A stretch of DNA of 64,000 nucleotides from Bacilli bacterium (GTDB lineage Bacteria; Bacillota_I; Bacilli_A; RFN20; CAG-449): assembly GCA_048359995.1 (NCBI GenBank), contig DBGCPK010000005.1, positions 56,585 through 120,584 on the forward strand. Direction: 5' to 3'. Positions 1,119 through 47,495 of the stretch are shown here, piece after piece. Positions within the stretch are counted from its first letter, which is position 1; each line of letters opens with the position of its first letter. A program made the position numbers and the translations under genes. The notes beneath the pieces are model-generated. The model ran no database searches and was not told the DNA's origin. It saw only the letters and a list, made by a program, of their open reading frames with translations.

Positions 1119-1394
1119 AAGAGGGATGAGGAGACCCACACTGCATATGGATATGATTGTATTATTGAAAAAGAGTATTACGAAATTGTAAAAATATTTG
1201 AACAGGGTGAGGAGTATGTAGAAAAGCATTTGTCGCCACAAGAAGTTGTGGTCAAAATTCTAGGCGAATTTATTGGAGGGCTGAATTCCGAAATAAGAAG
1301 TTTCGAGATCGATCTGCTTCCGCTGGAAGAGCAAGCAAGTATATTGCGAGAGCAAGAACGTATGCAAAAAAAAATTAAATATAGGAATGCTTAA
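1119..1394 (+). pseudogene. Start-less 91-codon open frame, C-terminal fragment of an unknown protein (gene remnant)
   Basis: 91 sense codons with no ATG/GTG/TTG start near the 5' end and a TGA just upstream in frame. Its stop abuts the convergent recombinase stop. Confidence 0.3.
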
Positions 1395-2018
1395 CTATGT
1401 TGTTAGGCATCCCTTATTTTTTTCGCTTAAAATACGGTTCATATGATAATAAAAATTGCAACGTTTTAGTCCGGACAATTTGATGGCTTCAGCAATTGAT
1501 ATTTCTTTTTTGCTTACTTGATAAACAATTTTTATTAATTCATTTTCATAAATTCTTTTAGGGCGACCAAATTTCACCCCACGATTCTTTGCGGCAATAA
1601 TTCCTTCTTTTTGCCTTTGCCGGATGTTGTCGCGCTCGTTCTCTGCAACAAACGATAGAACTTGAAGAACAATATCCGATATAAATTTGCCAACGAGTGT
1701 ATTTGCTTTGGTGCGCGTATCCAAAAGCGGCATATCTAGTACTAAAATATCCGCTTTGATTTCGTTTGTAATATAACTCCATTCGTGAATAATGGAATCA
1801 TAGTTTCTGCCAAGACGATCTATTGACTTGATGATTAGCAAATCATCTTGTTTTAATGTCTGAAGTAATTTTTTATAATTCTCACGTTCAAAATCTTTAC
1901 CGCTTTTTTTGTCTGAAAAAATGAATTTAGGATCAATGCCATAAGCAGTAAAAGCATCAAGCTGTCTTGCTATATTTTGGTCGGTTGCGGATACTCGTGC
2001 ATAAGCATAAGTGGACAT
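1395..2018 (-). CDS. Small serine recombinase (resolvase/Hin-type DNA invertase family)
   Basis: N-terminal catalytic motif YARVSATDQ with the active-site Ser, and a C-terminal HTH. About 207 aa. AAGGAG RBS 6-8 nt upstream of the ATG at 2018. Confidence 0.9.
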   Translation of the reverse strand: MSTYAYARVSATDQNIARQLDAFTAYGIDPKFIFSDKKSGKDFERENYKKLLQTLKQDDLLIIKSIDRLGRNYDSIIHEWSYITNEIKADILVLDMPLLDTRTKANTLVGKFISDIVLQVLSFVAENERDNIRQRQKEGIIAAKNRGVKFGRPKRIYENELIKIVYQVSKKEISIAEAIKLSGLKRCNFYYHMNRILSEKNKGCLTT

Positions 2019-2111
2019 TTGATTTTTCTCCTTGATTATATAAGGATAGCACAAAAGGAAAATTCAAAAAACTAAAACATATGGTTATAGCGGCGCTTAC
2101 AATTAAAAAAA

Positions 2112-2128
2112 GTAGACTTTTTCTAACA
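2112..2128. repeat. Left inverted repeat (IRL) GTAGACTTTTTCTAACA of candidate invertible switch
   Basis: Perfect 17-bp reverse complement of 2206-2222. Confidence 0.85.
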
Positions 2129-2205
2129 GCATACTTATCGACGAATTAGTACAAAATTCGACATAATTGAGTATAGTATAAATTAATTTCTATTGCAAGT
2201 GTTTG

Positions 2206-2222
2206 TGTTAGAAAAAGTCTAC
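2206..2222. repeat. Right inverted repeat (IRR) TGTTAGAAAAAGTCTAC of candidate invertible switch
   Basis: Perfect 17-bp reverse complement of 2112-2128; the two copies are separated by 77 bp. Confidence 0.85.
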
Positions 2223-2392
2223 CTTTGCTAACAGGATAGTTAGTTCTTTTGATGAAGTTGTGGAGATTTGCTCGTAGCTTTGGGCTCGGCAAAAATTGCA
2301 ACGGACATAAATTATTATTGTAGTGCAGGATATTCCAGCATGAAAGGGCGAAGCATACCTTTTCGCTTAATTGTTGGTATCATGGAGGGGAT

Positions 2393-2968
2393 ATGGAAGA
2401 GCCATATTGGTGGTATGTATTGCATGTGCGCTCTAACAAAGAGCATCGTGTTGTGGAAAGTTTTCAGCAAGCCTTTAACCAAAAAGGACTTGCATACGAA
2501 TTATACACTTTTTGTCTTGAGTCAGAACACTTCTATAAAGACAAGCAATCCCAAACATTAGGGCGAAAATATATTAAAAGGCCATTATTTCCTGGATATG
2601 TTTTTATAGAAACTAATATGCCATCTAAAGAGTTCATAATGACCTTTTTTTATGTGTTTTATGATTCTGCTGATATAATCCGTCTTTTGCGATACGGAGA
2701 TTCGGATGAAATTGCATTAAAAAAAGAAGAGCGGCAACGTTTTGAATTCCTTTTTAAAGGAAAAAGGGCGATTGAACACTCTATTGGTTATATTGAAGGT
2801 GATAAAATCATTATCACAGGCGGAGGACTAATGGGGCTTGAAGGGTATATCCGAAAAATCAATCGACATAACCGCACTGCAGATGTAGAGATAAATATGT
2901 TTAATCAAAGACAAACTATAAAAGTTGCACTTGAAATTGTGTCAAAATCAGGCAATCAAAAAAAATAG
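2393..2968 (+). CDS. NusG paralog (LoaP/UpxY-like specialized transcription antiterminator), NGN + KOW
   Basis: WYVLHVRSNKEHRV and PLFPGYVFIE NGN-domain motifs, and a C-terminal KOW-like GDKIIITGGGLMGLEGYI. GGAGGGG RBS. It is the first gene of the long co-directional cluster. Confidence 0.8.
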   Translation: MEEPYWWYVLHVRSNKEHRVVESFQQAFNQKGLAYELYTFCLESEHFYKDKQSQTLGRKYIKRPLFPGYVFIETNMPSKEFIMTFFYVFYDSADIIRLLRYGDSDEIALKKEERQRFEFLFKGKRAIEHSIGYIEGDKIIITGGGLMGLEGYIRKINRHNRTADVEINMFNQRQTIKVALEIVSKSGNQKK

Positions 2969-3037
2969 TCTTAACAGATTATTTTTTTGCTTTCTTTATG
3001 TAACGAGCGTTCCAAATAGGATTTAAGTACTAATGAT

Positions 3038-3571
3038 ATGAAAGAAGAAATAATAAACGCAAATGAAACTACCTTAAAAATTATTTTTGGTTGCTTAGTT
3101 CGTAACGGAGTAGAAAATACTACAATGCGATCGATATGTAATGCGACAGGCTTGACCGCAAGCAGTTTATATTACCGATTTAAGGACAAGGATGAAATTA
3201 TTTTAGAGGCATCCTGTTATGGGCTTAATTCCGTAACAAAAGAATTGTTTTGGGTTGTAACTGAAAAAATTAATAACTTCCAAGTTTTAATTGCTTTTTT
3301 GAAAAATGTTGATACTAGGAAACAATCTATAAAGCTTATTTATCAAGTTTTAAGTAGCCCTAAGTATGGTGAAAAATTTAGAAAAATGACGCATTCAACA
3401 CCGATGGTAATATATAAGTATACTGGGATGTTGTCAGAGAAACTCAATTGCTCGACAGAAGATTGTTGCTATATGTCGGACTTACAATTGCCGTTATTCG
3501 TGAATATGCAATATGGGAAAACAGGGAAAGCACGAAGCGAAAACTTAAATTTATTTACGACAATTGCTTAG
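3038..3571 (+). CDS. TetR/AcrR-family transcriptional regulator
   Basis: N-terminal HTH TTMRSICNATGLTASSLYYRFKDKDEI, typical of TetR; 177 aa. Confidence 0.7.
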   Translation: MKEEIINANETTLKIIFGCLVRNGVENTTMRSICNATGLTASSLYYRFKDKDEIILEASCYGLNSVTKELFWVVTEKINNFQVLIAFLKNVDTRKQSIKLIYQVLSSPKYGEKFRKMTHSTPMVIYKYTGMLSEKLNCSTEDCCYMSDLQLPLFVNMQYGKTGKARSENLNLFTTIA

Positions 3572-3620
3572 CCGATTGCTGTAAAAATGAAATTAATGAT
3601 TAATTTGGAAGAAACAACAA

Positions 3621-4661
3621 ATGCTTACTGATTATTATTATAATGAATTGTCCGTCCCTGAACAGGGTGCGTATAATAGTATTAGATTTGCTTTAAACAA
3701 TTCAGAGACTGAATGCACTGTAACTGGAATTAGTTCTAGTGAATCTGCTACACTTGTTTGGAAAGCCGTTGTTTTTGATCATCCGGAAATTATTAATTAT
3801 CCTGGACTGTTTTGTCAGCCGGTAGGTAATGGTGAGAATTTTAGGTTCAGATTTCAATATTCCCAGATTGATAGATATGCTTATGAAGAAAAACTAAATC
3901 GGCTAATAAACAAAATTAACAATAAAATGTCTGCTAATGCGTCAGATTATGTTGCTTGCAAAACAATATTTGATGAGTTAGCATCTTTTATTAAATATGA
4001 AGAAAATGTTTTAGAAGAGTATTTGAACCTTGAGCAAGAGAATTCTTCAGAGACAATAGATTTTATGCGAGACCATAGTACTTCATTTTCTCCATACGGA
4101 ATTCTAATGAATTCTAAAGGAGTGTGCCAAGGAATAGCCAAACTTTTTAAAATTATTTGTGACAGATTTGGCGTTCAATGTGCGTGTGTTGAAGCTAAGA
4201 CATTAAATTGCGGAGCTAATTCGGCAAGCAATCACATGTTAAATGTTGTAGAAATAGATGGGGAACGTGCTTTTGTCGATATAGCAAATAGTTTAAAGAT
4301 TGAAAATCTACCCGTTATTAAATATGATTTTTTCCTTATGCCTCAGCGTATTATCAATAAGACCTTTACAATTATTGGTGAGTTTGGATGCCGTAATGAG
4401 TCATTAAACTATTTTGTTAAAAATAATCTCCGTTTTACATCAATAAATGATTTAAGACGTTATCTTTTATCATATACCTATCGCTCAACGAATGGCGAAG
4501 TAAGGTGCCATTACGATGGAAACAAATTTGATGATAAAAAATTGGAAGACTTATTTTTTTACAATATAAACTACCATTGTCAAGATGGGTATTATATGCA
4601 ATTTGCAAGTGTTAAGAACGGATTCTGTACCGGTCTTATTAAATCAGATTCGGAGGTTTAA
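3621..4661 (+). CDS. Transglutaminase-like cysteine protease superfamily protein
   Basis: Cys-His-Asp arrangement: GVCQGIAKLFKIICDRFGV (Cys), NHMLNVVEI (His), AFVDIA (Asp). Confidence 0.55.
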   Translation: MLTDYYYNELSVPEQGAYNSIRFALNNSETECTVTGISSSESATLVWKAVVFDHPEIINYPGLFCQPVGNGENFRFRFQYSQIDRYAYEEKLNRLINKINNKMSANASDYVACKTIFDELASFIKYEENVLEEYLNLEQENSSETIDFMRDHSTSFSPYGILMNSKGVCQGIAKLFKIICDRFGVQCACVEAKTLNCGANSASNHMLNVVEIDGERAFVDIANSLKIENLPVIKYDFFLMPQRIINKTFTIIGEFGCRNESLNYFVKNNLRFTSINDLRRYLLSYTYRSTNGEVRCHYDGNKFDDKKLEDLFFYNINYHCQDGYYMQFASVKNGFCTGLIKSDSEV

Positions 4662-4664
4662 ATT

Positions 4665-6908
4665 ATGGAAGAAAGCAAAAAAATGAAATGGCAAAAGGAT
4701 TTTGATACTTTTTTCCCGATCTATAACTCATTTATCTTTGAAGGGTTCATTGATGATGATCAGCCATATGAAGACGAAAATGGAGAAATTAAATATTGTA
4801 GGCTTTATGACTATTTTGATAAAGTCTACAGCAATCATACCGATCCAACAAAACGTAAACGTGTAATCATCTATGATCCTACAGAATCAGATGATAAACG
4901 GTTTAAGATTTGCGATGATGATTGTATGCAAGAAGAAGTTGTCGATGAATCAGCAGACAATTTTGATGGAAAACTGAAAAAAGTCATGAATTATATGTCA
5001 TCGCAAATGTCGCAACATTTTTGGGATATAGTACATGATGATGATTTGGACATGCTTTTAATAGATCATAAATCATCTGGTCCTTCGTTAGATTTTTCTC
5101 GTATCCATTACGCTGTTACAGAGGGTAGTGGCCGTATTGCTCCATTCGAAATTCTTGATAAATTTAGAGATATTTTTAATAACCTGTTTGGTAATCCGCA
5201 AAATGGTGAACCAAGTGGGTATTTGTTTGTAATTAAAATGACATCACGTCTTTTATCGCGTGATGGTGCGTCCAACGGCTTGAGCGGTGAAGAGTTAATG
5301 ATATTTAGACAGTTGCTTAACATTGCCCAAAGTCTCGATACTGAAAGCGATAACGCCACGCAGCAACATCAAAGTAATAAGATCATCATTCTTGCAAACC
5401 AAGTGCGGGATTTGCCTATGTGGTTTACAGATGAAATTGCAAATCCGTTTATCAAGCTTATCAATGTATCAAGACCTTCTGAAGAAAATAAACTTGATTA
5501 TTTTAATGAAATGCTTGATAGCGGTTGCTTTAGTCCGCAATTTGTAGCTCGCTATAATGAGATTGATAGTGCTAGTAAAGAAAAAGATGCGCAGGCTAAG
5601 CGTAATCCAGTTGAAAAGAAATTTTTGGCGTATACAAACGATTTTAGTATGAAAATGCTAAGACGTTATAGGGCGTTTATTTCTAATAATCCTATAGATG
5701 ATCCGGCTAAATTGGGCTTTTCAATATCCACGTTCCGTGCCGGTGATATGACAAATCCTTGGGATGACGAAGACCGCATAAAGGATATGCTTAATATCAA
5801 ACAAACGGTAAGCAAAAAAATACAAGGTCAAGATTTTGCTTTAGATACTGCGCAAGCCATTTTAACAAGAGCCGCAATTGGACTTGACCGTGCTGAAAAT
5901 CCTAATGCTCCGCGGGTTATCTTATTTCTTGCCGGTCCGACAGGTACAGGTAAGACTGAACTATGTAAACAAATTGCGGAAAGTATTTTTGGCAGTGAAG
6001 ATAGAATTGTAAGATTTGATATGTCCGAGTATGGACAGGAAGAATCAGATCAAAAGCTTTTTGGTGCGCCTCCAGGATATGTTGGTTATGAAGAAGGCGG
6101 AAAGTTAACAAATGCTGTTAAGAAAGAGCCTTTTTCTCTTATCCTTTTCGATGAAATAGAAAAGGCTCATAATTCTATTCTCGATAAGTTTTTACAAATT
6201 CTTGGTGATGGCAGATTAACCGATGGCAAAGGAGAAACTGTTAGATTCACTGATTGCATTATAGTTATCACTTCAAATGCCGGGGTATTCTCGTTTGACG
6301 GAATGCCGCAGGAAGAAATCGACAAACTCATGAATGGCGATACAAAACCTGAAGGCGAAATGAATATGGACAGAGTTGCCCAGCTTGAGGAAGAATTGGC
6401 TGACGCTAATGGCAATATTTCCGAGCAATCATACTCAGAAATTTACGCAAAAGTAAAAGAACATTTAAGATACAATGTAAAGTCTTATTTCCATTGTAAA
6501 TTGAAGAGACCTGAGTTATACGGTCGTATTGAAGATTCTATAGTTTATTACAATTACATAGGAAAAGAATCAGTTGCAAAAATTGTTAAATCCAAAATTT
6601 CCGACGTAATTAAATCTACAAAAGAATCAATGAATGTTAACGATATTATATGCTCTGACGAAGTAAAAGCGGCAATTGCTCTCTATTGCCAAGATTGCAA
6701 AGTAAGAGCCTTAGGTGCGCGTGGTATTATCAAGAGTACCGGTAAATTATTCACTGGTAGCTTATCTAATTTCCTTTCTGATTATGTTCGTGGAGAGAAC
6801 GGAAAAAGTAAGGGCGATTTATCAGGAAAAACTTTAAAATGCACGTGCAACGAAATAATTTCATCGGCCTATGATATAGTTTGGAGTATCAATGATTGTA
6901 GTATTTGA
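4665..6908 (+). CDS. AAA+ ATPase with ClpA/ClpB D2-type domain (C-terminal) and unknown N-terminal region of about 400 aa
   Basis: LAGPTGTGKTELCK Walker A, a GAPPGYVGYEEGG sensor motif, Walker B LILFDEIEKAH, and LQILGDGRLTDGKGETVRFTDCIIVITSN. All are hallmarks of the Clp/Hsp100 D2 module. Confidence 0.8.
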   Translation: MEESKKMKWQKDFDTFFPIYNSFIFEGFIDDDQPYEDENGEIKYCRLYDYFDKVYSNHTDPTKRKRVIIYDPTESDDKRFKICDDDCMQEEVVDESADNFDGKLKKVMNYMSSQMSQHFWDIVHDDDLDMLLIDHKSSGPSLDFSRIHYAVTEGSGRIAPFEILDKFRDIFNNLFGNPQNGEPSGYLFVIKMTSRLLSRDGASNGLSGEELMIFRQLLNIAQSLDTESDNATQQHQSNKIIILANQVRDLPMWFTDEIANPFIKLINVSRPSEENKLDYFNEMLDSGCFSPQFVARYNEIDSASKEKDAQAKRNPVEKKFLAYTNDFSMKMLRRYRAFISNNPIDDPAKLGFSISTFRAGDMTNPWDDEDRIKDMLNIKQTVSKKIQGQDFALDTAQAILTRAAIGLDRAENPNAPRVILFLAGPTGTGKTELCKQIAESIFGSEDRIVRFDMSEYGQEESDQKLFGAPPGYVGYEEGGKLTNAVKKEPFSLILFDEIEKAHNSILDKFLQILGDGRLTDGKGETVRFTDCIIVITSNAGVFSFDGMPQEEIDKLMNGDTKPEGEMNMDRVAQLEEELADANGNISEQSYSEIYAKVKEHLRYNVKSYFHCKLKRPELYGRIEDSIVYYNYIGKESVAKIVKSKISDVIKSTKESMNVNDIICSDEVKAAIALYCQDCKVRALGARGIIKSTGKLFTGSLSNFLSDYVRGENGKSKGDLSGKTLKCTCNEIISSAYDIVWSINDCSI

Positions 6909-7425
6909 TGAACAATTAAAAGAAGCGCTTGAAAACGCCCAAAAGCTAAAACTGGCGGGAGAAGAAGAACTTTCAAAACAAATGTGTTTAAAATGCGTTG
7001 AGAAAGTTGCGTTATATAATGGCATTGATTTGATTTCGCTATTTTATGAGGACAAAGTATATGACGAAATAAAGGATGTGCCAGATGCTTTAAAGTACAT
7101 TTTTATAGCAAAATGCGCAATGAATGCGTATGACTTAATTTACTCAAAAAATCCGGCGAGCGATTCCGCATCTTCGTGGGCCAAGTGTGATAAAAACAAT
7201 AGCAATAGACCGCTTAGAGGTTTTTTTGAATGGTTACAAAGACGAAATCGATCAGTAGAAGAAAGGGATTGCAACCAATTCAAAATTCTGATCAATGCAA
7301 TGGTTGATTCTGACAATATTTATTTTAAAATGTCAGACCGAGTTGCTCAGTTGCCTTTAGTAGATATATTGAGCATGATAGTATCTGGTTCAATTACCAT
7401 TACTTCCGACGGAGAACTAAGATGA
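6892..7425 (+). CDS. Hypothetical protein (177 aa)
   Basis: ORF overlaps the upstream gene by 17 nt and the downstream gene by 4 nt (translational coupling); no recognisable motif. Confidence 0.55.
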   Translation: MIVVFDEQLKEALENAQKLKLAGEEELSKQMCLKCVEKVALYNGIDLISLFYEDKVYDEIKDVPDALKYIFIAKCAMNAYDLIYSKNPASDSASSWAKCDKNNSNRPLRGFFEWLQRRNRSVEERDCNQFKILINAMVDSDNIYFKMSDRVAQLPLVDILSMIVSGSITITSDGELR

Positions 7426-9191
7426 TTAGCGTAGTAAGATGTAGTAATAGAATGTGTATACAACTCCCAAAGGGTGTTACATGCAAGATTGGGGATATAA
7501 TTCCTTGCCCTAAAAGTTGTACATGCTTCAAAAAAGTTGAATCATTTTCCGTGGCGTCGGTATGGCAAATGGATGAAAAAAAATCCAGCAGTACGGCCAA
7601 ATATTCTGATGAGGAAATTAGAGCATATTGGGGGCAAGAGAATACGTCATCAGCTTCTTCTACCGATAGTGATATGCAAAGTTCAAATGTAGGCGTTAAC
7701 TCGTCCAATACTGCTTTGGGTGTAGAGCGACACGATAATAATCAAGTTGTAGCGAATGCCAATGAATTTGTAAGACAAAAGTCTTTCGGCAGATCACAGC
7801 GTTCTCAGTCCAATAGTGTTCCCGAAGCCGATGCAATATTGAGACCGCAAGAAAATTATGAAAAAATTGAGATTGGTGGTATGCAATTTACTGATAAAAT
7901 GACGATACTATCGTCGGAAATATCGCAGCCTCTCAGAAATGCTTTGTGGTTTATTTTCTCGCATTGGGAAACTCGTTCAGTTTTTAAAACAGAAACAGAA
8001 TTACGTGATGATTTTATTTGGTTGATAACATCGACTTCTAAACGCACTTTTAAGAAAAGTGAAATTGATGCAATATTATTAAATGAAGAATATGGACTTT
8101 CAGAAAAGTTCTTTTATTTGTTTTACGATATTATCTATCGCTACGAGCCGCCTAAAGGGTTTTACTGGTGCGATAAAGTTCTCTCACCTGATCCTTTAAG
8201 CTCATATTTTAGAGATAAAAAAGATTTTGTAGTTAAGTATTGTAATGCATACGCACAAGGCGAGCAATTTCGTTTGTTTTACATGGCACATAAAAAGGAA
8301 ATTTTACACTTTTTAGGCAGCGATAATGAAGAAAAATTGTTTGAAGACATGACATTATCTTTAGCTAAAGATGTCGGAGAAATTGTATTGATAGATAAAT
8401 ACAATAATTACATGCCGATAAATATGGGTAAGATTTCTTCGTTTATTATTAACATGCAGCAGCCAACTGAATTAAACAACATGAGAAACATGGTTAATTT
8501 TTTGGAAAAATATCGTGTAACACGACTTGGCGTTGTTCCTAGAGCTATTGAATACCCGTTCGAAAAATCTGTCAGGGATGATTTACAAGAAGATGTCAGT
8601 ATGTATGCAACTCTGCGATTAAACTCTTCTGCAAGCTACGCATCGGAATATGATTGCTTTGTGACACTCTTACATGAATATGTTAAGGTATTTAATCCCA
8701 GTGAAATTAAAATAGGTGAATTAACATTTACCCAAAGCAATTTTTCTCACGAATTAGAAGAAATTGTAAAAAACCTTTGCAAATCTTATTTTGGACAAGT
8801 CGCAGATGATGTGTTTGCAGACTATAAAAGTCGCGCATGGCTTGCGAAAAGCATATATGACAGGAACATTTTATCGACATATGTGTTAGAAAATAAATCC
8901 TACGTCGATAAGCTTATGAAACTAATTTCTAATCCAACATTAGAGCAATATATATCAATGTTCGATGATTGTGTTATTCAGTTGCATTATAGAGATTTAA
9001 CTATTCATGAATATATTGCAGAATTAGTGAAAGAAGATATTTATACGGTGTGTGGAGAATTTAGAGAAGACAATATTATTCATGAATTCTTCAATTACAA
9101 AATAAAAAATTGGTCTAAAACAAATTTGAGTGAACTGTTTAATAAATATCAGCGGCAATATGAAGCATTCATTAAAGGAGACATACTATGA
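7422..9191 (+). CDS. Hypothetical protein (589 aa) with Cys-rich N-terminus and Ser-rich linker
   Basis: ATGA overlap with the upstream gene. The N-terminus CSNRMC..CPKSCTC suggests a small metal-binding motif, followed by a low-complexity S/T-rich linker and a globular region. Confidence 0.6.
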   Translation: MISVVRCSNRMCIQLPKGVTCKIGDIIPCPKSCTCFKKVESFSVASVWQMDEKKSSSTAKYSDEEIRAYWGQENTSSASSTDSDMQSSNVGVNSSNTALGVERHDNNQVVANANEFVRQKSFGRSQRSQSNSVPEADAILRPQENYEKIEIGGMQFTDKMTILSSEISQPLRNALWFIFSHWETRSVFKTETELRDDFIWLITSTSKRTFKKSEIDAILLNEEYGLSEKFFYLFYDIIYRYEPPKGFYWCDKVLSPDPLSSYFRDKKDFVVKYCNAYAQGEQFRLFYMAHKKEILHFLGSDNEEKLFEDMTLSLAKDVGEIVLIDKYNNYMPINMGKISSFIINMQQPTELNNMRNMVNFLEKYRVTRLGVVPRAIEYPFEKSVRDDLQEDVSMYATLRLNSSASYASEYDCFVTLLHEYVKVFNPSEIKIGELTFTQSNFSHELEEIVKNLCKSYFGQVADDVFADYKSRAWLAKSIYDRNILSTYVLENKSYVDKLMKLISNPTLEQYISMFDDCVIQLHYRDLTIHEYIAELVKEDIYTVCGEFREDNIIHEFFNYKIKNWSKTNLSELFNKYQRQYEAFIKGDIL

Positions 9192-11092
9192 GCTCAATCG
9201 ATAAATATGTTGAAGGTGAAGCCAGATCATACAATCCTAGAGTTAATGTTGTAAAAAGGGGTGGTATGATAAATGGTTATATCGGTGGCAATTTAGTTTT
9301 TTCAATCGCAGACCGATATGGATATTTAAGCGATTCCGAACGCAGTACGATTAGAAACTCAATTCACGAGTATGAGGCAGAAGAGCAAGAGCGTATAAGA
9401 AGAGAACAAATACGCATTGAAAATGAACGCGTCGCTGTGCGAAATGCGCTTAGAAGCTCTGTAGTAGCTACAAAAAATAAAATTAGAGAATCATACAGTA
9501 ACGCTCAACGGGTAAGTCAAGAAGTAGCATCTTCATTGAGCGTTAAGTCAGTTTTGGATTCATTTAAAAAATATAATATTTCTTCATACATAGAACGTGC
9601 ACAAATTTTGGATCGCAAATTAAAAAGTTGTGTAGAGAGATTAGATGGTGAATACAGAAAAAAAATGCAAGAAGTCGAGTCGCTTGAAAGAACAATACGT
9701 GAAGATTCGACGAGACAGACATATATTCAACAGCAGGATTCCTTAAAGAAAATACACGTAAATTTTACTAATGTTGAATTTCCTGTTTCGGAAATTGAGC
9801 AATTAAAGTTTGAAATTGAAAAACTCAGAGAAGCTATTTTGAAAATCGAAAACATCGAAAAAGAACTTAGCAACGTGGCCAATGATGGGCTCATAGGCTC
9901 AATTGCTGCATCAGCTCTTAAAGAGATTAGACAGTTCAATATTAGTTCATTGGATGATGTAAATAAACTCCTTATTAGTGTTCAGGAACATCTTGGTGAA
10001 ATTCGCAATTTGAAATTTCACCAACAAAGCAAGGAGAGAAGCGATCAAATTGCTTTGTTAAACGGTATATTAAAATCGTGCTCGCAATTGCACGAATATT
10101 TGATTAGCCAGCCCTATGAAGCTACAAATAATCGTAGCGAAATAGTTGAGACAGCTAATCGGGTCTTAGGTATTTATTCAGAACTTGATACAGCTACTTA
10201 TTCTACATGCAGCAAAGAAAAAATTAAAGATGCATATGAATTGGTTCAAGAGGTGTTGGTTGGCTCGGCATCTAATGCTCAAACTCTTGAGTATTTAAAA
10301 CGGTTGCTTGAAGAAGGATTTGTATTTAAGCGCGACGACCAGCTTCAAGCAGATAATTATGCGGACTATATAAAAAAATACAACGAAATGATTGAACGCG
10401 GCGTGTCGATCGAAGAAATTGAAGTTTTTGATCCAATTAATTATTCAGAGCAAAAAAAGCGTCTCAATGAAAAACTGCTTGGATTAGATGTTCAAGAGGG
10501 AATAAATAGAACGCGCACGTCCTTTATGATGGCTTGGAAAGTTATGGAGGATATGGGATATCGTCTTCTGTATCAAAATATGGGAAGCGAAGGCGCAGAC
10601 GCATTAGCTTGCGAAGGTTTATTTGTTAAACCCGGTTATGAGGGGGTTGTATGGCAAGTTGTTGCTTCAGATTGCAATATAACTCGAAAGATAATAGGCG
10701 TTGAAAGGACAAGCGGTTTATCTACTTCAATCCAAAGAGTTAGAGAAGTCGCAGAAATAACAGAGCGCGACGGTGAAGTACAGGAATTCTTTGAGCGATA
10801 TGCAGAAGAAGGCGGTGGTGAACTTCTAGTCACAACTGATGTATATACTGGTTCTCCGGAATGCGAGCAAGCTATTCAAAGCAATGGATGTTTCAAGCTG
10901 TCAGAAGAAGGCGAAAAATGTTTAGATAAATTAGTGGAAACCGATGATGAGAATGCTAAAAAGAAAGGGCGCTCTCGTCTTAGAGCAGGAGAAGGAACAC
11001 CAGTCCAAACTCACGGAGTATCTCATAGTGTGCGTGAACAAGAGTCGCTGAGCGCTAATTCTAGAATAGTTGCCCAAAGAGCTAAGAAGTAA
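9188..11092 (+). CDS. Hypothetical protein (634 aa), coiled-coil rich
   Basis: ATGA overlap. Long heptad-like E/K/R/L-rich stretches and no catalytic motif. Confidence 0.6.
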   Translation: MSSIDKYVEGEARSYNPRVNVVKRGGMINGYIGGNLVFSIADRYGYLSDSERSTIRNSIHEYEAEEQERIRREQIRIENERVAVRNALRSSVVATKNKIRESYSNAQRVSQEVASSLSVKSVLDSFKKYNISSYIERAQILDRKLKSCVERLDGEYRKKMQEVESLERTIREDSTRQTYIQQQDSLKKIHVNFTNVEFPVSEIEQLKFEIEKLREAILKIENIEKELSNVANDGLIGSIAASALKEIRQFNISSLDDVNKLLISVQEHLGEIRNLKFHQQSKERSDQIALLNGILKSCSQLHEYLISQPYEATNNRSEIVETANRVLGIYSELDTATYSTCSKEKIKDAYELVQEVLVGSASNAQTLEYLKRLLEEGFVFKRDDQLQADNYADYIKKYNEMIERGVSIEEIEVFDPINYSEQKKRLNEKLLGLDVQEGINRTRTSFMMAWKVMEDMGYRLLYQNMGSEGADALACEGLFVKPGYEGVVWQVVASDCNITRKIIGVERTSGLSTSIQRVREVAEITERDGEVQEFFERYAEEGGGELLVTTDVYTGSPECEQAIQSNGCFKLSEEGEKCLDKLVETDDENAKKKGRSRLRAGEGTPVQTHGVSHSVREQESLSANSRIVAQRAKK

Positions 11093-13691: not shown

Positions 13692-13703
13692 CGGGGGTAT
13701 TTT

Positions 13704-16184: not shown

Positions 16185-16201
16185 GAGGAGGGAATAGAGA
16201 A

Positions 16202-17155: not shown

Positions 17156-17159
17156 GAAT

Positions 17160-20543: not shown

Positions 20544-20578
20544 ATTTCTATTATCATTAAAGTGAATCGGAGGTTGAT

Positions 20579-21208
20579 ATGGCTAAAATAAAATTAATAA
20601 CAGTAAAGTGCGCTCACTGCGGTAAAGAGAGCGAGCAGACAACAGTTTATAGTAGCAGTTCATTCGGTAGTATGGATTTAGATACTAGACCGCCGATGTC
20701 CGATATGACGTTGCAATATGAAGTGCAGGAGTGTCCTCACTGTCATTTCTGCAATAATACAATTGTAGATGCTACAAATATTCCGGAGTCATTTTCTCCG
20801 GAATATGATGCACTATCAAAGGATAACATCATTTCCCAAACCGCTAAAAAATTCTTGTTGGCAGCAATGCTTCGGGCTCAAATCGGAGACAATCTTAAAG
20901 CCGGGGAGTACTATTTAAAGGCCGCTTGGGTATTTGACGATGAAAATGCTCAAGAAGCCGCTATAGATGCACGTAAAAATGCAGCAATAAAATTCCGTGA
21001 GTATGTTGATGCTACCGACGATGGTAATGTCGCCATTGTGCTAGTAGATGTCCTCAGACGTGCAGGAGATTTTAAAGCTGCAGCAGACCTCATAGACTTA
21101 ATAGGTAATACCGAAGATAAACTTTTAAACAATATTCTTTCGTTTGAAAAATCATTAATAAGTAAAAACGATACGTCCTGCCATAACATGGGAGAAATAG
21201 CTGAATGA
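20579..21208 (+). CDS. Zinc-ribbon (CxxC...CxxC) plus helical-repeat protein
   Basis: CAHCG...CPHCHFC followed by an Ala-rich helical TPR-like region. Candidate partner or immunity-type protein for the upstream gene. Confidence 0.5.
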   Translation: MAKIKLITVKCAHCGKESEQTTVYSSSSFGSMDLDTRPPMSDMTLQYEVQECPHCHFCNNTIVDATNIPESFSPEYDALSKDNIISQTAKKFLLAAMLRAQIGDNLKAGEYYLKAAWVFDDENAQEAAIDARKNAAIKFREYVDATDDGNVAIVLVDVLRRAGDFKAAADLIDLIGNTEDKLLNNILSFEKSLISKNDTSCHNMGEIAE

Positions 21209-22305
21209 TATTCGGGAACAAATACACTAAAACCCGAATATCAACGCCTTATTCGAAATTGTCCGAAATGGAATTATTATCGAGGTTTGAGAGCGATAGC
21301 TGGACTAAATTAAATCAACAGGAAAAAATCGATACTATTCAAGAATTAGAAAATCGATACGCAGTCGAGCAAAAAAGACCAGTATCTAAAATTGAGGCAG
21401 AGGACAACTCTTACAATTATGGTTCCTATGCAAAATCGGAAAATACTATCCGTATTCGTATGGAGGATAGTAAAGCAAATACATCTTATGAGATGCTGGA
21501 TTCTTACTATCATGAGAGCAGACACGCACAACAATATCAAGCAATCGAGTCGGGTAAAGGATTGGATGAGACTACACGGAATGTTTGTCAGACTGAATTA
21601 CGAGGCAATTACGTTGGCGGCGGAAAATATTATGACATGCAGACTTGTGAAATGGATAGCAATAACTATGCGGCAGACAAGATGTTGTCAAACAAAAAAC
21701 TCTTCGAGGGGGATGAAAAGTATAACGAGTATTTAGAACGACTCCAAGAACATTTCGAAGAGGTTAATAAAAGTTGTCATGAAGATGAAGATTTTAGAGC
21801 TCGTCAGCAAATTAATAATGTAGATAAGAGCTTAGCACGCGGTAGTATTACGGAAAAACAAGCAAACCAAATCAAAGAGCAAGTATACAGTGACAACGAC
21901 GATCCCGTATTAGCAGAGAGCTGTGATATTGAGGATAGACTACGAGAAGAAAACTCTGAACGTTTAGAAAATAGAAATTCAGCATCAAACGACTTGACAT
22001 TAGAACAAAAGCGCGAACAATTTTTCGAAACCGAAAGCACTGACGCTGAAACAAACTATAGTCAAAACGATATAAGTAAACGTCAACAGTTTTTTGAGAG
22101 AGATGAATCATCTGATGATCAAGAGCAAGTATCAGACAACCTAGCTAATTCAGAAGAGGACACACATAGCAAGCACGAGCAATTTTTTGAAGACAGCGGA
22201 AGCAATAATGGGCAAGGAGATGGCGAAGGAAATACTGAAGCGTTCGGCGAAAGTGAACATAGTGGCGAGAGTGAGCAATCCTCTCAAACGAATTCAATTA
22301 CATAG
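21205..22305 (+). CDS. HExxH-motif protein (putative zincin-like) with acidic disordered C-terminal tail carrying repeated [KR][HQ]x[EQ]FFE motifs
   Basis: YYHESRHAQQ contains H-E-x-x-H. The tail repeats EQFFETES, RQQFFERDES and HEQFFEDSGS. Confidence 0.6.
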   Translation: MIFGNKYTKTRISTPYSKLSEMELLSRFESDSWTKLNQQEKIDTIQELENRYAVEQKRPVSKIEAEDNSYNYGSYAKSENTIRIRMEDSKANTSYEMLDSYYHESRHAQQYQAIESGKGLDETTRNVCQTELRGNYVGGGKYYDMQTCEMDSNNYAADKMLSNKKLFEGDEKYNEYLERLQEHFEEVNKSCHEDEDFRARQQINNVDKSLARGSITEKQANQIKEQVYSDNDDPVLAESCDIEDRLREENSERLENRNSASNDLTLEQKREQFFETESTDAETNYSQNDISKRQQFFERDESSDDQEQVSDNLANSEEDTHSKHEQFFEDSGSNNGQGDGEGNTEAFGESEHSGESEQSSQTNSIT

Positions 22306-22325
22306 TTTATTTTGAGGGAAAGTAT

Positions 22326-23193: not shown

Positions 23194-23195
23194 CA

Positions 23196-24506
23196 ATGAT
23201 AAAACAGATACTTTCGGGGAATTTATTAGAAAAGAATAGCCCTCCAGTGATAGATGATCCACTTATCTATATTAATGGAACATGTAATGGTTCCCGCGCA
23301 TCGTTTATGCTAAATGAGAGCATTTTGAGTAAACATATGATGCTCATAGGTGGAACTGGGTGTGGCAAAACTAATACTTTTCTCCATTTGGTTAAACAAC
23401 TTAAATCCAGCATGACAGAAGACGATGTGATGATTATTTTTGATACAAAAGGCGATTATCATAGTAAGTTTTTTAATTCTAACAAGGATTACGTTTTGTC
23501 CGCATCATCTCTGTATAAACAAGACGCTTGTACATGGAATATATTTAGCGAAATTTTAGCTGACGGCAATAGAGCAAGCGAAATTGAACCTAATATTGCA
23601 GAAATATCATGGGGACTTTTTAGCGTGAGCATCGAAAAAAATAATAGTAATCCATTTTTCCCTAATGCAGCAAGAGACCTTTTTTCTTCGATTTTAACAT
23701 GTATTGTAAGGTATGCTGAAGGGAGAGAAGACTGGATATCTAAATATTTACATAATGCTTTTTTGAAAACTAAACTTGATAAAATGAATGCTAAAGCAAT
23801 TGGTGAATTGCTGAAGGACTACGATGATCAAGCTGCTGTAATGAGTTACATTGGCAATGGAGAGAATCAACAAGGGTTGGGCGTAATGGCCGAGATGCAG
23901 TCAGTTATCAGGAAAGTATTTGTAGGTGCATTCGCAGAGAAGGGTGACTTCTCCATTAGAAAATTTATTAGAGACAAAGGAGCTAAAACACTTTTTATCG
24001 AATATGACTTGTCGCGGGGAGCCACATTAACTCCAATATACAAGTTACTTATTGACCTGGCATTAAAGGAAGCAATGAGCAGAAAATGCAAAGGTAATGT
24101 GTATTTATTCTGTGACGAGTTTAAACTGTTACCTTACTTACAACATATCGAAGACGCGGTTAACTTTGGGCGTTCTTTAGGTGTTAAGGTTTTTGCAGGA
24201 CTTCAAAGTATAGATCAGCTCTATGAAAATTATGGCGAAGCTAGAGGAAAAAACATTATCGCTGGATTTTCAAGCGTTTTATCTTTCAAGGCCAATGATG
24301 AAGACACACGAACTTTTACCTCTGGATTATACGGTAAAAATTACATATTGGAGCAGTATAGAGTATTGGAAAATGCTTATGCCGAAGATAAAAGATTAGG
24401 CTCTGTTGTTGAAGATTGGGAAATTTGTAGCTTACAAGTTGGTGAAGCAGTTGTTGGGTTGCCTAACACAGCACCATTCAAATTTAAATTCGATTTATAT
24501 AGGTGA
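23196..24506 (+). CDS. VirD4/TraG-family (type IV coupling protein-like) P-loop ATPase, soluble form lacking N-terminal TM segment
   Basis: Walker A LIGGTGCGKTNT, Walker B LFCDEF, NPFFPNAARDLFSSIL (the DPFW..AA..LL motif of T4CPs), and GRSLGVKVFAGLQSIDQLYENYG (the GRS.G.....Q...QL..YG block). Confidence 0.65.
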   Translation: MIKQILSGNLLEKNSPPVIDDPLIYINGTCNGSRASFMLNESILSKHMMLIGGTGCGKTNTFLHLVKQLKSSMTEDDVMIIFDTKGDYHSKFFNSNKDYVLSASSLYKQDACTWNIFSEILADGNRASEIEPNIAEISWGLFSVSIEKNNSNPFFPNAARDLFSSILTCIVRYAEGREDWISKYLHNAFLKTKLDKMNAKAIGELLKDYDDQAAVMSYIGNGENQQGLGVMAEMQSVIRKVFVGAFAEKGDFSIRKFIRDKGAKTLFIEYDLSRGATLTPIYKLLIDLALKEAMSRKCKGNVYLFCDEFKLLPYLQHIEDAVNFGRSLGVKVFAGLQSIDQLYENYGEARGKNIIAGFSSVLSFKANDEDTRTFTSGLYGKNYILEQYRVLENAYAEDKRLGSVVEDWEICSLQVGEAVVGLPNTAPFKFKFDLYR

Positions 24507-26047
24507 TCAGAATGTTAAGAGCGATTTTTGGTTTTTTTGTCGGTCTATTTCGACGCAGTTCAAATCTTAGAAATACTGAACAGCAATTAAATAATATTGA
24601 TGTTCAGAATGAAACAAACAAAAATGTCGTTGAGTATCGGAATAATGCCATAGAAGCATTTGTTCCAAACGGAACTGAAAATATTGTTGTTTCTGGTTCA
24701 AATGAAAGTTTACGTAATAGAGTAAACTGCGCATCTGCTTGGCGTTGCCATGAGGTGGGAAGGGCAGCAGTCATTTTACATTGCAGTAATTATCAGTTAT
24801 CTGAGCTGATCGATGAAACATTTAGCGGCGAGAGGGGCTTTCATAATTTGAATAGTCGTAATCCATATTACGATCCTTTTGTTGGCTTAAACCGTTCGGA
24901 AATTTCACAGATGATTTTGAGTTCATCTGGTAGCAATTATAAAATTGAGCGAATAGGAAATTCGTATATATATGGATTAATCGATTACCTTCAGCTAATT
25001 GGTAGACCTATTTGCGTTGAAACTTTTAATAACTGCTTACGAGATAGAAGCTACGAACAAATTATGGAGCAGGCAGAACGAGGAAATATTTCCGAATTTA
25101 TTGCTAGGCGAATTAATTCAGAATTAGCACAAGGAAAACTTGAAGCTGGAAACATTGAACAATACTTTACGGTATTAAAGCAGCAAACTGGAAATACTCT
25201 AGCTGATGAATCATCCGTCTCTAATGCTATCAGTATTAAAAAAGCTTTAAGACAAAATGAAATCATAGCATTTGATATCGGTGATGCATCCAATTCATTA
25301 TTACTTAATTTGGTTATTCAAGAAATAAGAGATGCAATTTCTGCAGGACTAAGATTTACACTGATTATTGATTCAATTCCAGTTGATTCATCGGAATCTC
25401 TTGGACAGTTGATGAGGAATTTTTCAGGTATGTGCTCGTTTGTTTATTCGTCTCCAGATGCATATACAAGTGCTCAAAGTACAGCAAATATTTTTGACAC
25501 CATTCTTGGACGAGCCAATACCGTATTTGTATTGCAGCATTCATCTACTTCCAGTGGAAGATTTTCTCAGTTTTTAGGTCAATATCAAAAAATAGAAGTT
25601 AATCATACTTTTACAAGCGGAGATACATATGCAACATTTGGGCAAATTCTGCCCGGTTCATCATCTGCAAATATTTACGGAACGCAATTGGTTAATAGAG
25701 CTCGAGTAGAGGAAAACGAAATTTCATCTCAGAGTCCCGAGCACGTATATATTAAAAGAAGTGGAACCAATGAGATAATAAGTGTGAGGTGTACAGGTGG
25801 TAGCGCAAAGACTCATTACGAAACGCCGCAAATAAATATTTCACGCCGTCCTAGAGCAACCAGACGAAGAATGAGTTGGATTGTTTTTATTTTATTGTTC
25901 GTTTTCTGTTGTCCGGCTGCATTTATTTACTCGTTTGTAAAATCGGGCAGAATAGGAAAAATTGTCAGTGCAATATTCTTTTTCTTAGTGCTGGCATTGT
26001 ACATTTGTCAGATTGTTTTAATTGTCAATGGTAGGACGGTTAGTTAA
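24503..26047 (+). CDS. Polytopic membrane protein (514 aa), N-terminal TM and two C-terminal TM helices
   Basis: ATGA overlap with the upstream ATPase gene. Hydrophobic N-terminus AIFGFFVGLF. C-terminal helices WIVFILLFVFCCPAAFIYSF and IVSAIFFFLVLALYICQIVLIV. Confidence 0.6.
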   Translation: MIRMLRAIFGFFVGLFRRSSNLRNTEQQLNNIDVQNETNKNVVEYRNNAIEAFVPNGTENIVVSGSNESLRNRVNCASAWRCHEVGRAAVILHCSNYQLSELIDETFSGERGFHNLNSRNPYYDPFVGLNRSEISQMILSSSGSNYKIERIGNSYIYGLIDYLQLIGRPICVETFNNCLRDRSYEQIMEQAERGNISEFIARRINSELAQGKLEAGNIEQYFTVLKQQTGNTLADESSVSNAISIKKALRQNEIIAFDIGDASNSLLLNLVIQEIRDAISAGLRFTLIIDSIPVDSSESLGQLMRNFSGMCSFVYSSPDAYTSAQSTANIFDTILGRANTVFVLQHSSTSSGRFSQFLGQYQKIEVNHTFTSGDTYATFGQILPGSSSANIYGTQLVNRARVEENEISSQSPEHVYIKRSGTNEIISVRCTGGSAKTHYETPQINISRRPRATRRRMSWIVFILLFVFCCPAAFIYSFVKSGRIGKIVSAIFFFLVLALYICQIVLIVNGRTVS

Positions 26048-26706
26048 AAAATATAGCATCTATACTGATTTAATACTTGCTAAAGCAAATCAGTAAAGAA
26101 ACAAATTAATTTATGCAAGTTGTGCAATGATAATATCTTTAATTGTTATTTGCTGTTTGATAGTAACAAGGGTAACGATATGATCAACGGTATAAGCATT
26201 TTGATTGTATGTCGAGGAAGAATAGTTCTTCTTTATACTGCAAAATCTTTGCAGCTTGAACAATTTTATTCAATAATACTGAAAGATTTTTAATTTTCGT
26301 CAGGTGACAACTTAAATTCAGTTAAAAAAAGAAAAACGAAGAAAAGACAAAGTAAGTTCCGAAAAAAGAGACAGGGAGTTGCTATTTTCATGACAAAGTA
26401 AGTTCAGCCAGTAAAAGAATTCAATGAAACTATTGATAAAAAACAGAAATTACCTTAATATGAAGATGCTTAAAGATAGCAAAAAGACAAAGAAAAAAGA
26501 ACTCACGGAATATCGTTGCCAAACTCAATTCCGTAAATTGATGGGTATATATTTTTGTTAATTTGTCCTTGCCATATGCATCTTTAAGTTTTTTTATTCT
26601 TTATATTTTCTAATAAGTGATTTGGTTAGATGAATACCATCAAATGGATTTTTTTTTGATATTAGGAGAGTCAAGTATTTCACTTCCAAAGATAAATTCA
26701 AAGATT

Positions 26707-27535
26707 TCATATTGCAGGAAATATTTTTTTAAAATTATCAATTCCAATTCTATCTTGAATGAAATTAAATGCTGAAACAATCGTTGAAGCTTCTTTATTA
26801 AGAACTAAGATACCAATCATAAAATTTGAAAAAGGAAATAGAAGAGTCATTAGATATTGTGAATCATTGGTTTTACCAATAACTAAATCAAGTTGAGGAA
26901 TATATACTTGACGATTTTCTGCAAGAAATTTTAAATAGTCTTCATACATTCTTCCATCTCTGATTGCTTGTAATTCTTTTCTTTCTTTGTCTTTGTACTT
27001 GTAAGCTTTTCTTGGCTTCATTTTTACTTTATTTCGTAAATCATGATCTTTTATTTGAAGATATCTATTTGTTACATAATGGTAAACAGTTCTTTCGGAT
27101 ACACCTATCTCAGGATGATTGATCATAGTAGTAATGATGAATCCGACAAGAACCAGTCTTTTGACAACCATTGCATACATAAGGGAATCTAGTTAAACGA
27201 GAACAAGTCTTGATAACAAAATCTTACAAATGAGAGTAAGATCTTTCGTAATACATTTTCTACATTCATATGCACATAATGTTGAACAGACTTTCGTTTT
27301 CTTACATTCCTTTACTTTTGAACAAATACAACAATATGGACGAATATAATCACCGCGTTTTACTTGTTTTACATAACGATGCTTCCGAATTTCTTTGGAG
27401 AATGAAGTAGGATCTTTTCCAATCTTCCTCGCAATTTCATTTTATTTTGTTCCTTTTTTGATTTCAATTAAGATAGTATCTCTTTGATCGAGAGTCATAT
27501 GTGTTCCTTTTGCCATTCTTTTCCTTCCTTTCTTT
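26707..27535 (-). mobile_element. IS30-family transposase gene remnant (in-frame stops, 3'-truncated)
   Basis: Reverse-strand translation gives an IS30-like HTH (IARKIGKDPTSFSKEIRKHRY, cf. IA..L.RSPSTISREIQRN). It also gives the catalytic-core region DLVIGKTNDSQYLMTLL (cf. GHWEGDLVSGTKNSHIATLV). The reading frame is broken by stop codons and ends before the final third of the DDE domain. Confidence 0.55.
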
Positions 27536-28012
27536 TTGGCGAGGTCCATCTTCATTATACTATTGTCACACTAAATTTCACTTTTCCTTTTTTAAACTGA
27601 TTTTATGTTGGCACTTATCGGATTTTTAATTTTTATAAAAATTGTTCATCAGTTAATGCTTTGAAAATGACGAAAAGATATTGAGCATTCTTGCAAAAAA
27701 AGGGGATTGCCAAACTTTGGGTATATAAAGAAGTTGAAAATATCTGTTCGTTACTCTATTTTGCGGGTTCAACATTCTTATTATATAAATCTTTTACAGA
27801 TAACGAAAAGGCGGAAGAGCGGAGAATCAATGTGTTGTCGTTTTTCATGATAAATAAGTTATTTCACAGAAAAAAAGTTTAATTTTTTCTTTTTAACTCT
27901 GGTTTTTTACGGGAAAACGCGTCGATCAACCGGCAGTTGATTCGTTCAATTTTAATTATTTTGCTTTTTTTGCATAACTGCACTTATACTAAAAGCGAGG
28001 AGGTTGTTGAAA

Positions 28013-46897: not shown

Positions 46898-46911
46898 AGA
46901 GAGGTGAAAAT

Positions 46912-47481: not shown

Positions 47482-47495
47482 AGAGAGGTGAAAAT

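Follow-up and report, generated by a model that had tools for sequence, protein, structure and literature searches.

We analysed a 64,000-nucleotide stretch of contig DBGCPK010000005.1 (assembly GCA_048359995.1) of a Bacilli bacterium; this whole stretch is called the window below. Within it, positions 1129-27891 form an island flanked by the genes dus, XRE-TM, hup and lysS. This island is a foreign piece of DNA, and we consider it probable that its long operon is run by an invertible promoter and a LoaP-type NusG paralogue, and that the central ten-gene cassette (g1-g10) encodes a DO-GTPase/GAP1-like sensor/switch/effector system. The island as such is an ordinary, textbook case of horizontal acquisition with a clean empty site, and the regulatory design has close precedents; the novelty lies in the rare cargo. 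The coordinates of all features are collected in Table 1.

A foreign segment between dus and hup

An earlier, sequence-only reading of this DNA had described an AT-rich island with an abrupt shift in base composition and codon usage, and quantitative analysis bears this out. First, the GC content is 0.348 in the island and 0.437 in the other 37.2 kb of the window (p = 2.7e-10, Mann-Whitney test on the GC of 2-kb windows); the 1-kb profile reads 0.49 at 1-1000, 0.28-0.40 over 1000-28000 and 0.44-0.49 beyond 28000. Second, the GC content of third codon positions is 0.24-0.34 in 18 island genes and 0.49-0.58 in five flank genes. Third, the island has a distinct tetranucleotide profile: when composition-normalised 4-kb chunks are compared with the flank profile, those of the island correlate at 0.25-0.64 and core chunks at 0.92-0.96.

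The same reading predicted an empty site with the XRE-TM gene and hup right after dus, and this is what we observed. An exact lookup of the HU protein encoded at 29099-29374 retrieved one contig identical to the window and nine metagenome contigs (L001, L002 and L004-L010) with the order ftsH-dus-XRE/TM-hup-lysS and without the island. By blastn, these nine are 98.5-99.5% identical to the window flanks; their homology ends at window position 1123-1128 and restarts at 27892. Where the window carries 26,763 bp, the empty site carries the 18 bp CATTGTGGCGGTACATTG, and its junction reads ...GAAAGAGAGATG-CATTGTGGCGGTACATTG-TTTAACTCTGG... The island first proposed is therefore real, with borders at 1129 and 27891 rather than 1119 and 28012 and a size of 26.76 kb rather than about 26.6 kb. 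That all relatives carry the same region with the same composition is excluded by the nine near-identical contigs. Family searches of the island genes gave no housekeeping annotation for any of them, as had been claimed. Because the composition break lies far beyond chance, because the segment is absent from nine approximately 99% identical contigs, and because an 88%-identical copy stands in another, mobile-element-like neighbourhood, we conclude, in agreement with the sequence-only reading, that 1129-27891 is horizontally acquired foreign DNA.

How might the island have arrived at this site? The 88%-identical element is carried by a 74-kb contig from another sample (L051). Upstream of its recombinase gene lie genes for YqaJ, DUF7768, a RecD2-like helicase, DUF3854 and DUF4313 together with small genes, and its backbone is plasmid-like or like that of an integrative conjugative element (ICE). 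The homology of this contig to the window starts exactly at the left junction, at CACACTGCATATGG, where a break at a short GAGGATG-like microhomology inside a donor gene left a 258-bp fragment of that gene in the island. No target-site duplication was found at the junctions when the window was compared with the nine empty-site contigs, and the signature of integration (an integrase with attL/attR repeats, a tRNA target, a duplication) was not found for the island at 1129/27891; Rfam at gathering thresholds matched no RNA family in the whole window, no dedicated tRNA scan having been run. With no duplication, and with the donor gene cut short at a microhomology, illegitimate recombination or decay is the indicated origin of the fragment. 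The window therefore carries only part of a larger mobile element, not an intact self-mobile island, and we propose that this truncated piece became fixed between dus and XRE-TM/hup/lysS in one strain lineage. The IS30-family remnant noted earlier at the right edge is indeed a pseudogene: its translation has two in-frame stops and lacks the C-terminal half.

The composition of the related element also differs between its parts, with a GC content of 0.445 in the backbone and 0.356 in the operon. In distant genomes the GC content of the cassette is 0.37-0.64 and roughly follows that of the flanks; several loci are off by 0.05-0.11 on one side, and in L027 a short left flank has 0.34 against 0.64 for the cassette. 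These values could mean that the mobile element received its operon from a low-GC lineage. Two samples, ERR14047985 and ERR13998840, each contain an empty dus-hup site (L002 and L004) and, on other contigs (L034 and L035), a 90%-identical cassette; the element thus circulates in communities whose host lineage lacks it at the dus-hup site. Searches of known plasmids, phages and IMG/VR viral contigs gave no match to the cassette.

A predicted invertible promoter ahead of a loaP-headed operon

The serine recombinase that the sequence-only reading had placed at the left edge is present, though not as the agent of insertion: it adjoins a short promoter segment bounded by inverted repeats. The two arms are 77 nt apart and lie 85 nt from the recombinase start, and their 17-nt core has just these two copies in the window (0.19 expected). 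In the window's orientation, the predicted promoter between them faces away from the operon, a state that we call OFF. Equivalent promoters are found in a distant, approximately 72% identical element (L036; TTGCCA-N17-TGcTATAAT) and in an element represented by L046-L053 (TTGCAA-N17-TGcTACAAT), whose LoaP homologue, P0121, is 92% identical to that of the window. A promoter-like -35/-10 pair therefore stands at one fixed position in three diverged variants, in two of them with an extended -10. In L036 the same two substitutions are present in both arms, so that the arms co-vary.

The P0121 element showed us this segment in both orientations. On the five contigs that encode P0121, the spacer is oriented as in the window in three and is reverse-complemented in two. 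The flipped state, with the promoter facing LoaP, is found in L046 and L048, and the unflipped state in L047, L049, L050, L052 and L053. Over approximately 3.1 kb, L046 and L047, from two samples, differ only at one single-nucleotide polymorphism and in a 91-bp block, which one contig carries as the exact reverse complement of the other. The arms of this element differ at one base, CTTTT[G/T]CTAAC, which swaps sides upon the flip, and this places the crossover in the outer GTAGACTTTT part of the arms. Furthermore, four Logan contigs from four other samples start exactly at the base at which the two states differ (the equivalent of 2213). A de Bruijn assembler breaks a contig where both states coexist in one sample. 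The promoter segment thus flips naturally: in the element with the 92%-identical LoaP, natural populations contain it in either orientation between unchanged flanks. OFF is the commonest orientation among the sampled contigs, the window and most others pointing the promoter at the recombinase gene, and the three contigs of the window's own strain (the window and two from metagenomes) are identical and all OFF, with no flipped copy among them. In the flipped contig L048 (SRR9335148_73072), the first 30 nt (positions 1-30, GGCATGTTGGAAGTTATCCTGTAACATATA), which precede the left arm, are unlike those of all other copies; either a further product of recombination at this arm or an assembly tip could explain them.

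Which enzyme might carry out the flip? The adjacent recombinase probably does so, given its adjacency and the co-conservation of recombinase and repeats in all related elements; the arrangement recurs in L036, L046, L047 and L052. Its catalytic domain and its 207-aa size are those of the Sin, Tn552 Bin3, gamma-delta resolvase and Hin/Gin group, and its best relatives of solved structure are Tn552 Bin3/Sin (E = 2e-30), followed by gamma-delta/Tn3 resolvases and a DNA invertase. Unlike those enzymes, it would work on a pair of 26-nt inverted repeats separated by only 77 nt, and neither an enhancer nor an accessory site was identified around the switch.

Downstream of the switch, 19 tightly spaced or overlapping genes on the same strand form a 23.7-kb operon (2393-26047) headed by loaP. 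The match of the first protein to the antiterm_LoaP model covers the full model length, whereas the UpxY type scores 47.3 bits; by sequence, this protein is a member of the LoaP family. The 160-nt leader between switch and loaP contains long blocks that are invariant even between approximately 72%-identical elements, and RNAalifold found three base pairs with compensatory change in it, from four sequences only. Its terminator-like hairpin holds GCGAAGC, which we take to be a stable mini-hairpin sequence; the stem differs between the window and L036, and the adjoining GGGCGAAGCATAC block is invariant. Searched against Rfam at E <= 1, the leader gave only chance matches of miRNAs and snoRNAs to the palindrome. 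LoaP of Bacillus depends on a hairpin in the leader and on a leader terminator that requires NusA (PMC12691694), and the layout of this leader is compatible with both. A terminator consensus scan of the operon gave 20 matches against 10.6 +/- 3.7 expected, on both strands, which is not decisive. In distant genomes the cassette has no LoaP, TetR or recombinase gene beside it, and these three are therefore specific to the mobile lineage.

We propose three layers of control. In the first, the 111-bp promoter segment would be flipped by the adjacent recombinase, being OFF in the window and facing the operon when flipped. In the second, LoaP would act on the predicted hairpins and terminator-like stem of the conserved leader and drive RNA polymerase through terminators across the 19 genes. 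The third would be the TetR-family regulator encoded after LoaP. Under this control, only a subpopulation of cells would express the operon.

This design resembles that of the Bacteroides capsule loci, which combine the Mpi serine invertase, invertible promoters, the NusG paralogue UpxY and UpxZ (PMC11685472): in both, a small serine recombinase accompanies a short promoter that inverts between repeats, ahead of a long operon with a locus-specific NusG paralogue first and a small regulator second. The island differs in its Firmicute host, in the LoaP type of its NusG paralogue (132.5 bits against 47.3 for UpxY), in a TetR protein instead of UpxZ as the second gene product, in a cargo other than polysaccharide synthesis, and in a recombinase encoded beside its single switch, in contrast to Mpi, which acts globally. 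Inversions around loaP are known in Eggerthella. With the LoaP of Bacillus velezensis (dfn/mln polyketide operons) the island shares the protein family, a very long operon and a 5' leader with predicted conserved hairpins and a terminator-like stem; unlike in B. velezensis, loaP heads the very operon that it would target, an invertible promoter stands upstream, no UNCG hairpin is evident and the cargo is different.

The ten-gene cassette and its GTPase/GAP1-like pair

The order g1-g10 is kept in about 18 loci with unrelated surroundings, drawn from NCBI metagenome-assembled genomes (MAGs) and from metagenomes. The cassette has so far been found only in uncultured, Christensenellales-like gut Clostridia; the gut MAGs that carry it are labelled Candidatus Coproplasma, Christensenella(ceae), Eubacteriales, Clostridia and Oscillospiraceae. 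At its centre are g7 and g8, with 13 nt from the end of g7 to the start of g8 in the window; the two are adjacent in all loci.

We noted that this pair resembles the one that defines the predicted DO-GTPase/GAP1 conflict systems. In a GAP1-N2-type GTPase-centric system, a Firmicute zinc-ribbon GTPase with a Walker-B Glu is followed by a GAP1 protein with C-terminal transmembrane (TM) helices (Kaur, Burroughs, Iyer, Aravind 2020, PMC7159879). First, the G1, DxxG-E and TKxD motifs of g7 are invariant among its homologues, which at the level of motifs establishes a GTPase fold; the zinc-ribbon cysteines C287, C290, C311 and C340 upstream of the GTPase domain are invariant as well, and g7 thus has the features of a TRAFAC GTPase with a conserved Walker-B Glu and an N-terminal zinc ribbon. 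Second, nine of 25 g7 homologues match PF19993 (DO-GTPase2), with a best E of 0.003 that is sub-threshold, and two match PF19975; two fused distant relatives also match DO-GTPase2, with up to 24.4 bits against a cut-off of 27. Third, 11 of 18 g8 homologues match PF20014 (GAP1-M), always at about residues 115-216, and the g8 homologue of L021 passes the gathering score of 24 with 26.5 bits, its match spanning positions 9-100 of the 101-position profile; g8 of the window is itself unmatched. Searches recovered 83 homologues of g7 among 5.8 billion non-redundant proteins, none of them named and none with a Pfam domain, and 319 relatives among 1.84 billion representative proteins. Some distant relatives (P0265-P0271, P0300, P0317, P0326 and P0337) are 1050-1400 aa long; in these, the GTPase module is fused at its N-terminal side to a further 300-700 residues.

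The other members of the cassette are constant in kind. His205 and Asp220 are invariant in the peptidase-like protein g1, and 14 of 15 homologues retain Cys169. In g2, very many residues are invariant; the ClpB, ClpV and ClpA equivalogs match residues 370-548 only, and the conserved N-terminal 370 aa have no recognised fold. The CX3CX2C motif of g6 (C26, C30, C33) is invariant. Neither g4 nor g5 could be taken as a divergent glycyl-radical enzyme for g6: by eye, neither of the window's two translations has such a C-terminal motif, and g5 is mostly coiled coil. No informative match was found for the fold of g5, and profile searches of the Protein Data Bank with g5, g7 and g8 gave nothing significant. 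In g9, the strands look beta-helix-like by eye, with no family above threshold. The Hint domain of g10 and the tail of about 90 aa that follows it are conserved in 10 of 17 homologues, the others finishing in Gly-rich repeats; a polymorphic toxin is ruled out, the tail being conserved and not variable. Two reduced cassettes were also found: L021 lacks g5 and g6, and L026 is reduced to g7, g8 and a g10-like protein that lacks Hint. They suggest that the GTPase, the GAP1-like protein and a surface protein form the minimal core.

Like the published GAP1-N2 systems, the island has a TRAFAC GTPase with Walker-B Glu and N-terminal zinc ribbon, a GAP1-M-like protein with C-terminal TM helices encoded directly downstream, a Firmicute host and membrane-proximal or extracellular repeat components, and its chaperone-type ATPase partner is comparable to the HSP70/GrpE theme of GTPase-centric systems (PMC7159879). 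Unlike them, it has a single GTPase, no match to GAP1-N1/N2 or FNIII and Pfam scores that are mostly sub-threshold; g10 carries Flg_new repeats in place of an FNIII-repeat partner. Its partner set, which is constant and lies outside the three published themes, comprises a transglutaminase-fold peptidase, a ClpB-like AAA+ ATPase, an NrdG-like radical-SAM protein, helical proteins and anchored proteins with Listeria-Bacteroides repeats and Hint. From these sequence features we regard the cassette as a probable divergent member of the DO-GTPase/GAP1 class with a new partner set, probably a membrane-associated sensor/switch/effector system. It would be a costly system aimed at invaders or competitors, in which the surface proteins and the GAP1-like protein sense, the GTPase switches, and the AAA+ ATPase, the peptidase and the radical-SAM enzyme act. 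More tentatively, and with more doubt than belief, we suggest that g1-g10 is an undescribed GTPase-switched membrane machine, turned ON and OFF across the population by the inverton together with LoaP and built from the DO-GTPase/GAP1-like pair, a ClpB-like unfoldase, a peptidase, an orphan activase and Hint surface proteins.

Table 1. Features of the island and their positions in the window.
Feature	Position	Strand	Evidence or remarks
Acquired island	1129-27891	.	26,763 bp in place of 18 bp; blastn against nine empty-site contigs
3' fragment (~85 codons) of 142-aa donor-element gene	1137-1394	+	Intact in L051 at 8547-8975
Small serine recombinase, 207 aa, predicted invertase of adjacent switch	1395-2018	-	PF00239, E = 2e-26
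Left inverted-repeat arm	2103-2128	.	26 nt, 88% complementary to right arm, perfect 17-nt core
Invertible segment	2112-2222	.	111 bp including palindromic arm cores; 91 bp altered by flipping
Sigma-70-like promoter within switch	2170-2198	-	TTGCAA-N17-TATACT; directed at recombinase gene, away from operon (OFF)
Right inverted-repeat arm	2206-2231	.	26 nt; Logan contig breaks at equivalent of 2213
Conserved 5' leader	2232-2392	+	Hairpins 2267-2293, 2323-2341; terminator-like hairpin 2346-2368 (RNAalifold)
LoaP-type NusG paralogue, first gene of operon	2393-2968	+	NF033641 antiterm_LoaP, 132.5 bits, cut-off 125; PF02357
TetR-family regulator	3038-3571	+	PF00440, E = 8e-9; always next after LoaP in related elements
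g1, cytoplasmic transglutaminase-fold cysteine peptidase-like	3621-4661	+	PF14381, PF01841 both weak; NF045980, E = 8.5e-13
g2, ClpB-D2-like AAA+ ATPase	4665-6908	+	PF07724 AAA_2, E = 2e-42
g3, small protein, no known domain	6892-7425	+	Position conserved in 17 loci; no family match
g4, 589 aa, Cys-rich N-terminus, no known domain	7422-9191	+	Position conserved; no family match
g5, long helical/coiled-coil, small N-terminal beta domain, C-terminal alpha/beta domain	9188-11092	+	
g6, NrdG-like radical-SAM activase	11092-11685	+	PF13353, E = 8e-31; TIGR02491 NrdG, 97 bits, cut-off 126
g7, beta-rich N-domain, zinc ribbon and small-GTPase domain, DO-GTPase-like, 669 aa	11682-13691	+	
g8, GAP1-like, C-terminal TM helices, 826 aa	13704-16184	+	TM-like segments 715-823
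g9, N-terminally membrane-anchored, Asn/Gly-rich repeated strands, 317 aa	16202-17155	+	TM-like segment 7-35; position conserved
g10, N-terminally anchored surface protein, 1127 aa	17160-20543	+	PF09479, E = 1e-14; weak Hom_end_hint; TM-like 5-39
h1, DUF2225, zinc ribbon and TPR-like	20579-21208	+	PF09986, E = 1.8e-6
h2, conserved HExxH motif, acidic tail	21205-22305	+	HESRH at residue 103; no family match
h3, 178 aa	22326-22862	+	Weak PHROG match only
h4, 114 aa	22849-23193	+	No family match
h5, soluble TrwB/VirD4/TraD-like ATPase	23196-24506	+	PF10412, E = 8e-41; no TM segment
h6, 514 aa, partner of h5	24503-26047	+	Two C-terminal TM helices, TM-like segments 455-514
IS30-family transposase pseudogene	26707-27524	-	NF033563, E = 1.2e-6, 28 bits, cut-off 80

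Alternative accounts and the meaning of the switch

Several points weigh against our reading of control and cargo. In the switch, the promoter hexamers, taken one by one, match no better than expected by chance, and the leader has no evident UNCG tetraloop, unlike the hairpin bound by Bacillus LoaP. In the GTPase/GAP1 pair, the DO-GTPase2 matches of g7 homologues stay under the gathering score, g7 and g8 of the window match neither Pfam model at E < 0.01, and Pfam detected neither a GAP1-N1/N2 domain nor an FNIII-repeat component in the g8 homologues and cassette proteins. PADLOC 2.0 has no defence model that fits the gene set; its hits are isolated domain matches, of the ClpB-like protein to PDC-M37B/DolB and of h5 to mad8/HerA, and PHROGs gave nothing phage-like among the island genes, only the weak match of h3. 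The partners of the cassette are constant between genomes, unlike the described effector sets of conflict systems. We found no experiment on any DO-GTPase/GAP1 system in the literature, so that 'conflict system' is itself a prediction. Finally, two anchored, apparently surface-exposed proteins together with phase variation fit a surface structure equally well.

That last point leads to the main rival on function, which we consider unlikely while granting it a substantial share of our credence: the operon may build or display a phase-variable surface structure or adhesin made of g9 and g10, with self-processing by Hint, the cytoplasmic GTPase, AAA+ ATPase, peptidase and radical-SAM proteins serving its export, maturation or assembly and not defence. 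Each of these two proteins has one N-terminal TM segment and a large, probably extracellular region, with Listeria-Bacteroides repeats, and g10, with its alternative Gly-rich C-termini, is the most variable protein of the cassette (23-50% identity). Invertible promoters and NusG paralogues are a classic control of surface polysaccharides (PMC11685472), and a switch that is most often OFF in the samples would also suit this account. However, family searches of the island genes found no secretion, sortase, glycosyltransferase or pilus-assembly gene, the GTPase/GAP1-M-like pair ties the cassette to predicted conflict systems, and the relatives of h5 and h6 stand with kinase, PP2C and vWA signalling modules.

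These two genes belong to the accessory module h1-h6, which follows the cassette. Downstream of the cassette, h1 and h2 are present in several divergent genomes (h1 also in L018, L022, L023, L033 and L057; the HExxH motif of h2 is kept in L018, L022, L033 and L057), and h1-h5 in L018, L033 and L057. Homologues of h5 stand at 30 metagenome loci, with 41-93% identity (mostly 52-67%), about 19 or 20 of them with an h6-like gene and about 11 with a g1-like transglutaminase-fold gene. The sole annotated locus of that kind (L074) is an operon with a Ser/Thr kinase, vWA, PP2C phosphatase and Sel1 repeats. At L074 1398-13317, as at about 11 similar loci among L062-L084, the order is Sel1/TPR, transglutaminase-like, h6-like, Ser/Thr kinase, vWA and PP2C, continuing after PP2C with two unknowns, a VirD4-like ATPase and a Sel1-repeat protein; the L074-type operon shares three families, those of g1, h5 and h6, with the island.

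Could h5 instead be the coupling protein of a decayed integrative conjugative or mobilisable element, with the recombinase as its resolvase and the remaining genes as incidental cargo? We regard this as improbable. The matches of h5 to TrwB, T4SS-DNA_transf and TraG-D_C, the DUF3854, RecD2-like helicase, YqaJ and DUF4313 genes upstream in the related element, and the IS30 remnant are all in its favour. On the other hand, the ATPase domain that h5 shares with VirD4, TrwB and TraD (nearest PADLOC model, mad8) lacks their N-terminal anchor, no relaxase or type IV secretion system (T4SS) channel gene is present in the window, and the order g1-g10 is constant in about 18 loci without mobile-element genes. 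In L057, h6 is followed by a 168-aa membrane protein and then by a gene that by eye resembles IDI/Nudix, with no recognised conjugation gene beyond, and the repeats beside the recombinase invert a promoter. Because h5 has no membrane anchor and its homologues stand in non-conjugative kinase/PP2C/vWA/Sel1 operons, we take it, as judged from its sequence and company, not to be a conjugative coupling protein here but to belong to a second module that is likewise centred on an NTPase and broadly similar in character. Least credible of all is the idea that the inverted repeats are a res site or an operator for the recombinase or TetR and the two orientations assembly artefacts, which the shortness of the 111-bp segment and the short-read origin of the contigs might encourage, but which is opposed by two independent flipped and five unflipped contigs from different samples and assemblers, by an exact reverse-complement block within identical flanks, and by an arm polymorphism that moves with the flip and coincides with contig breaks in four samples.

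Two further low-GC patches of the window lie outside the island. The first, at 45349-49681 (about 0.37), encodes an AraC-like regulator, a 530-aa secreted protein and three tandem paralogous lipoprotein-like genes (46349-46897, ~46909-47481 and ~47496-48074). The second, which has the lowest GC content outside the island (0.30-0.32), holds the gene of a 484-aa secreted trypsin-like protease with a GNSGGP motif (61348-62802, minus strand) and may be another foreign insert.

What, then, would a DO-GTPase/GAP1-like cassette under an inverton and LoaP mean? A divergent system of this kind with a natural ON/OFF switch offers a testable handle on a class known from genome prediction only, and if the cassette is indeed an undescribed machine, it would give the first workable natural access to the role of DO-GTPase/GAP1 systems. 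The NrdG-like activase g6 stands without a recognisable glycyl-radical partner and is an orphan enzyme. The pairing of an inverton with a NusG paralogue is now seen in a Firmicute, with LoaP and a non-polysaccharide cargo, which suggests that this design is a general answer to the problem of running very long, costly operons in gut bacteria.

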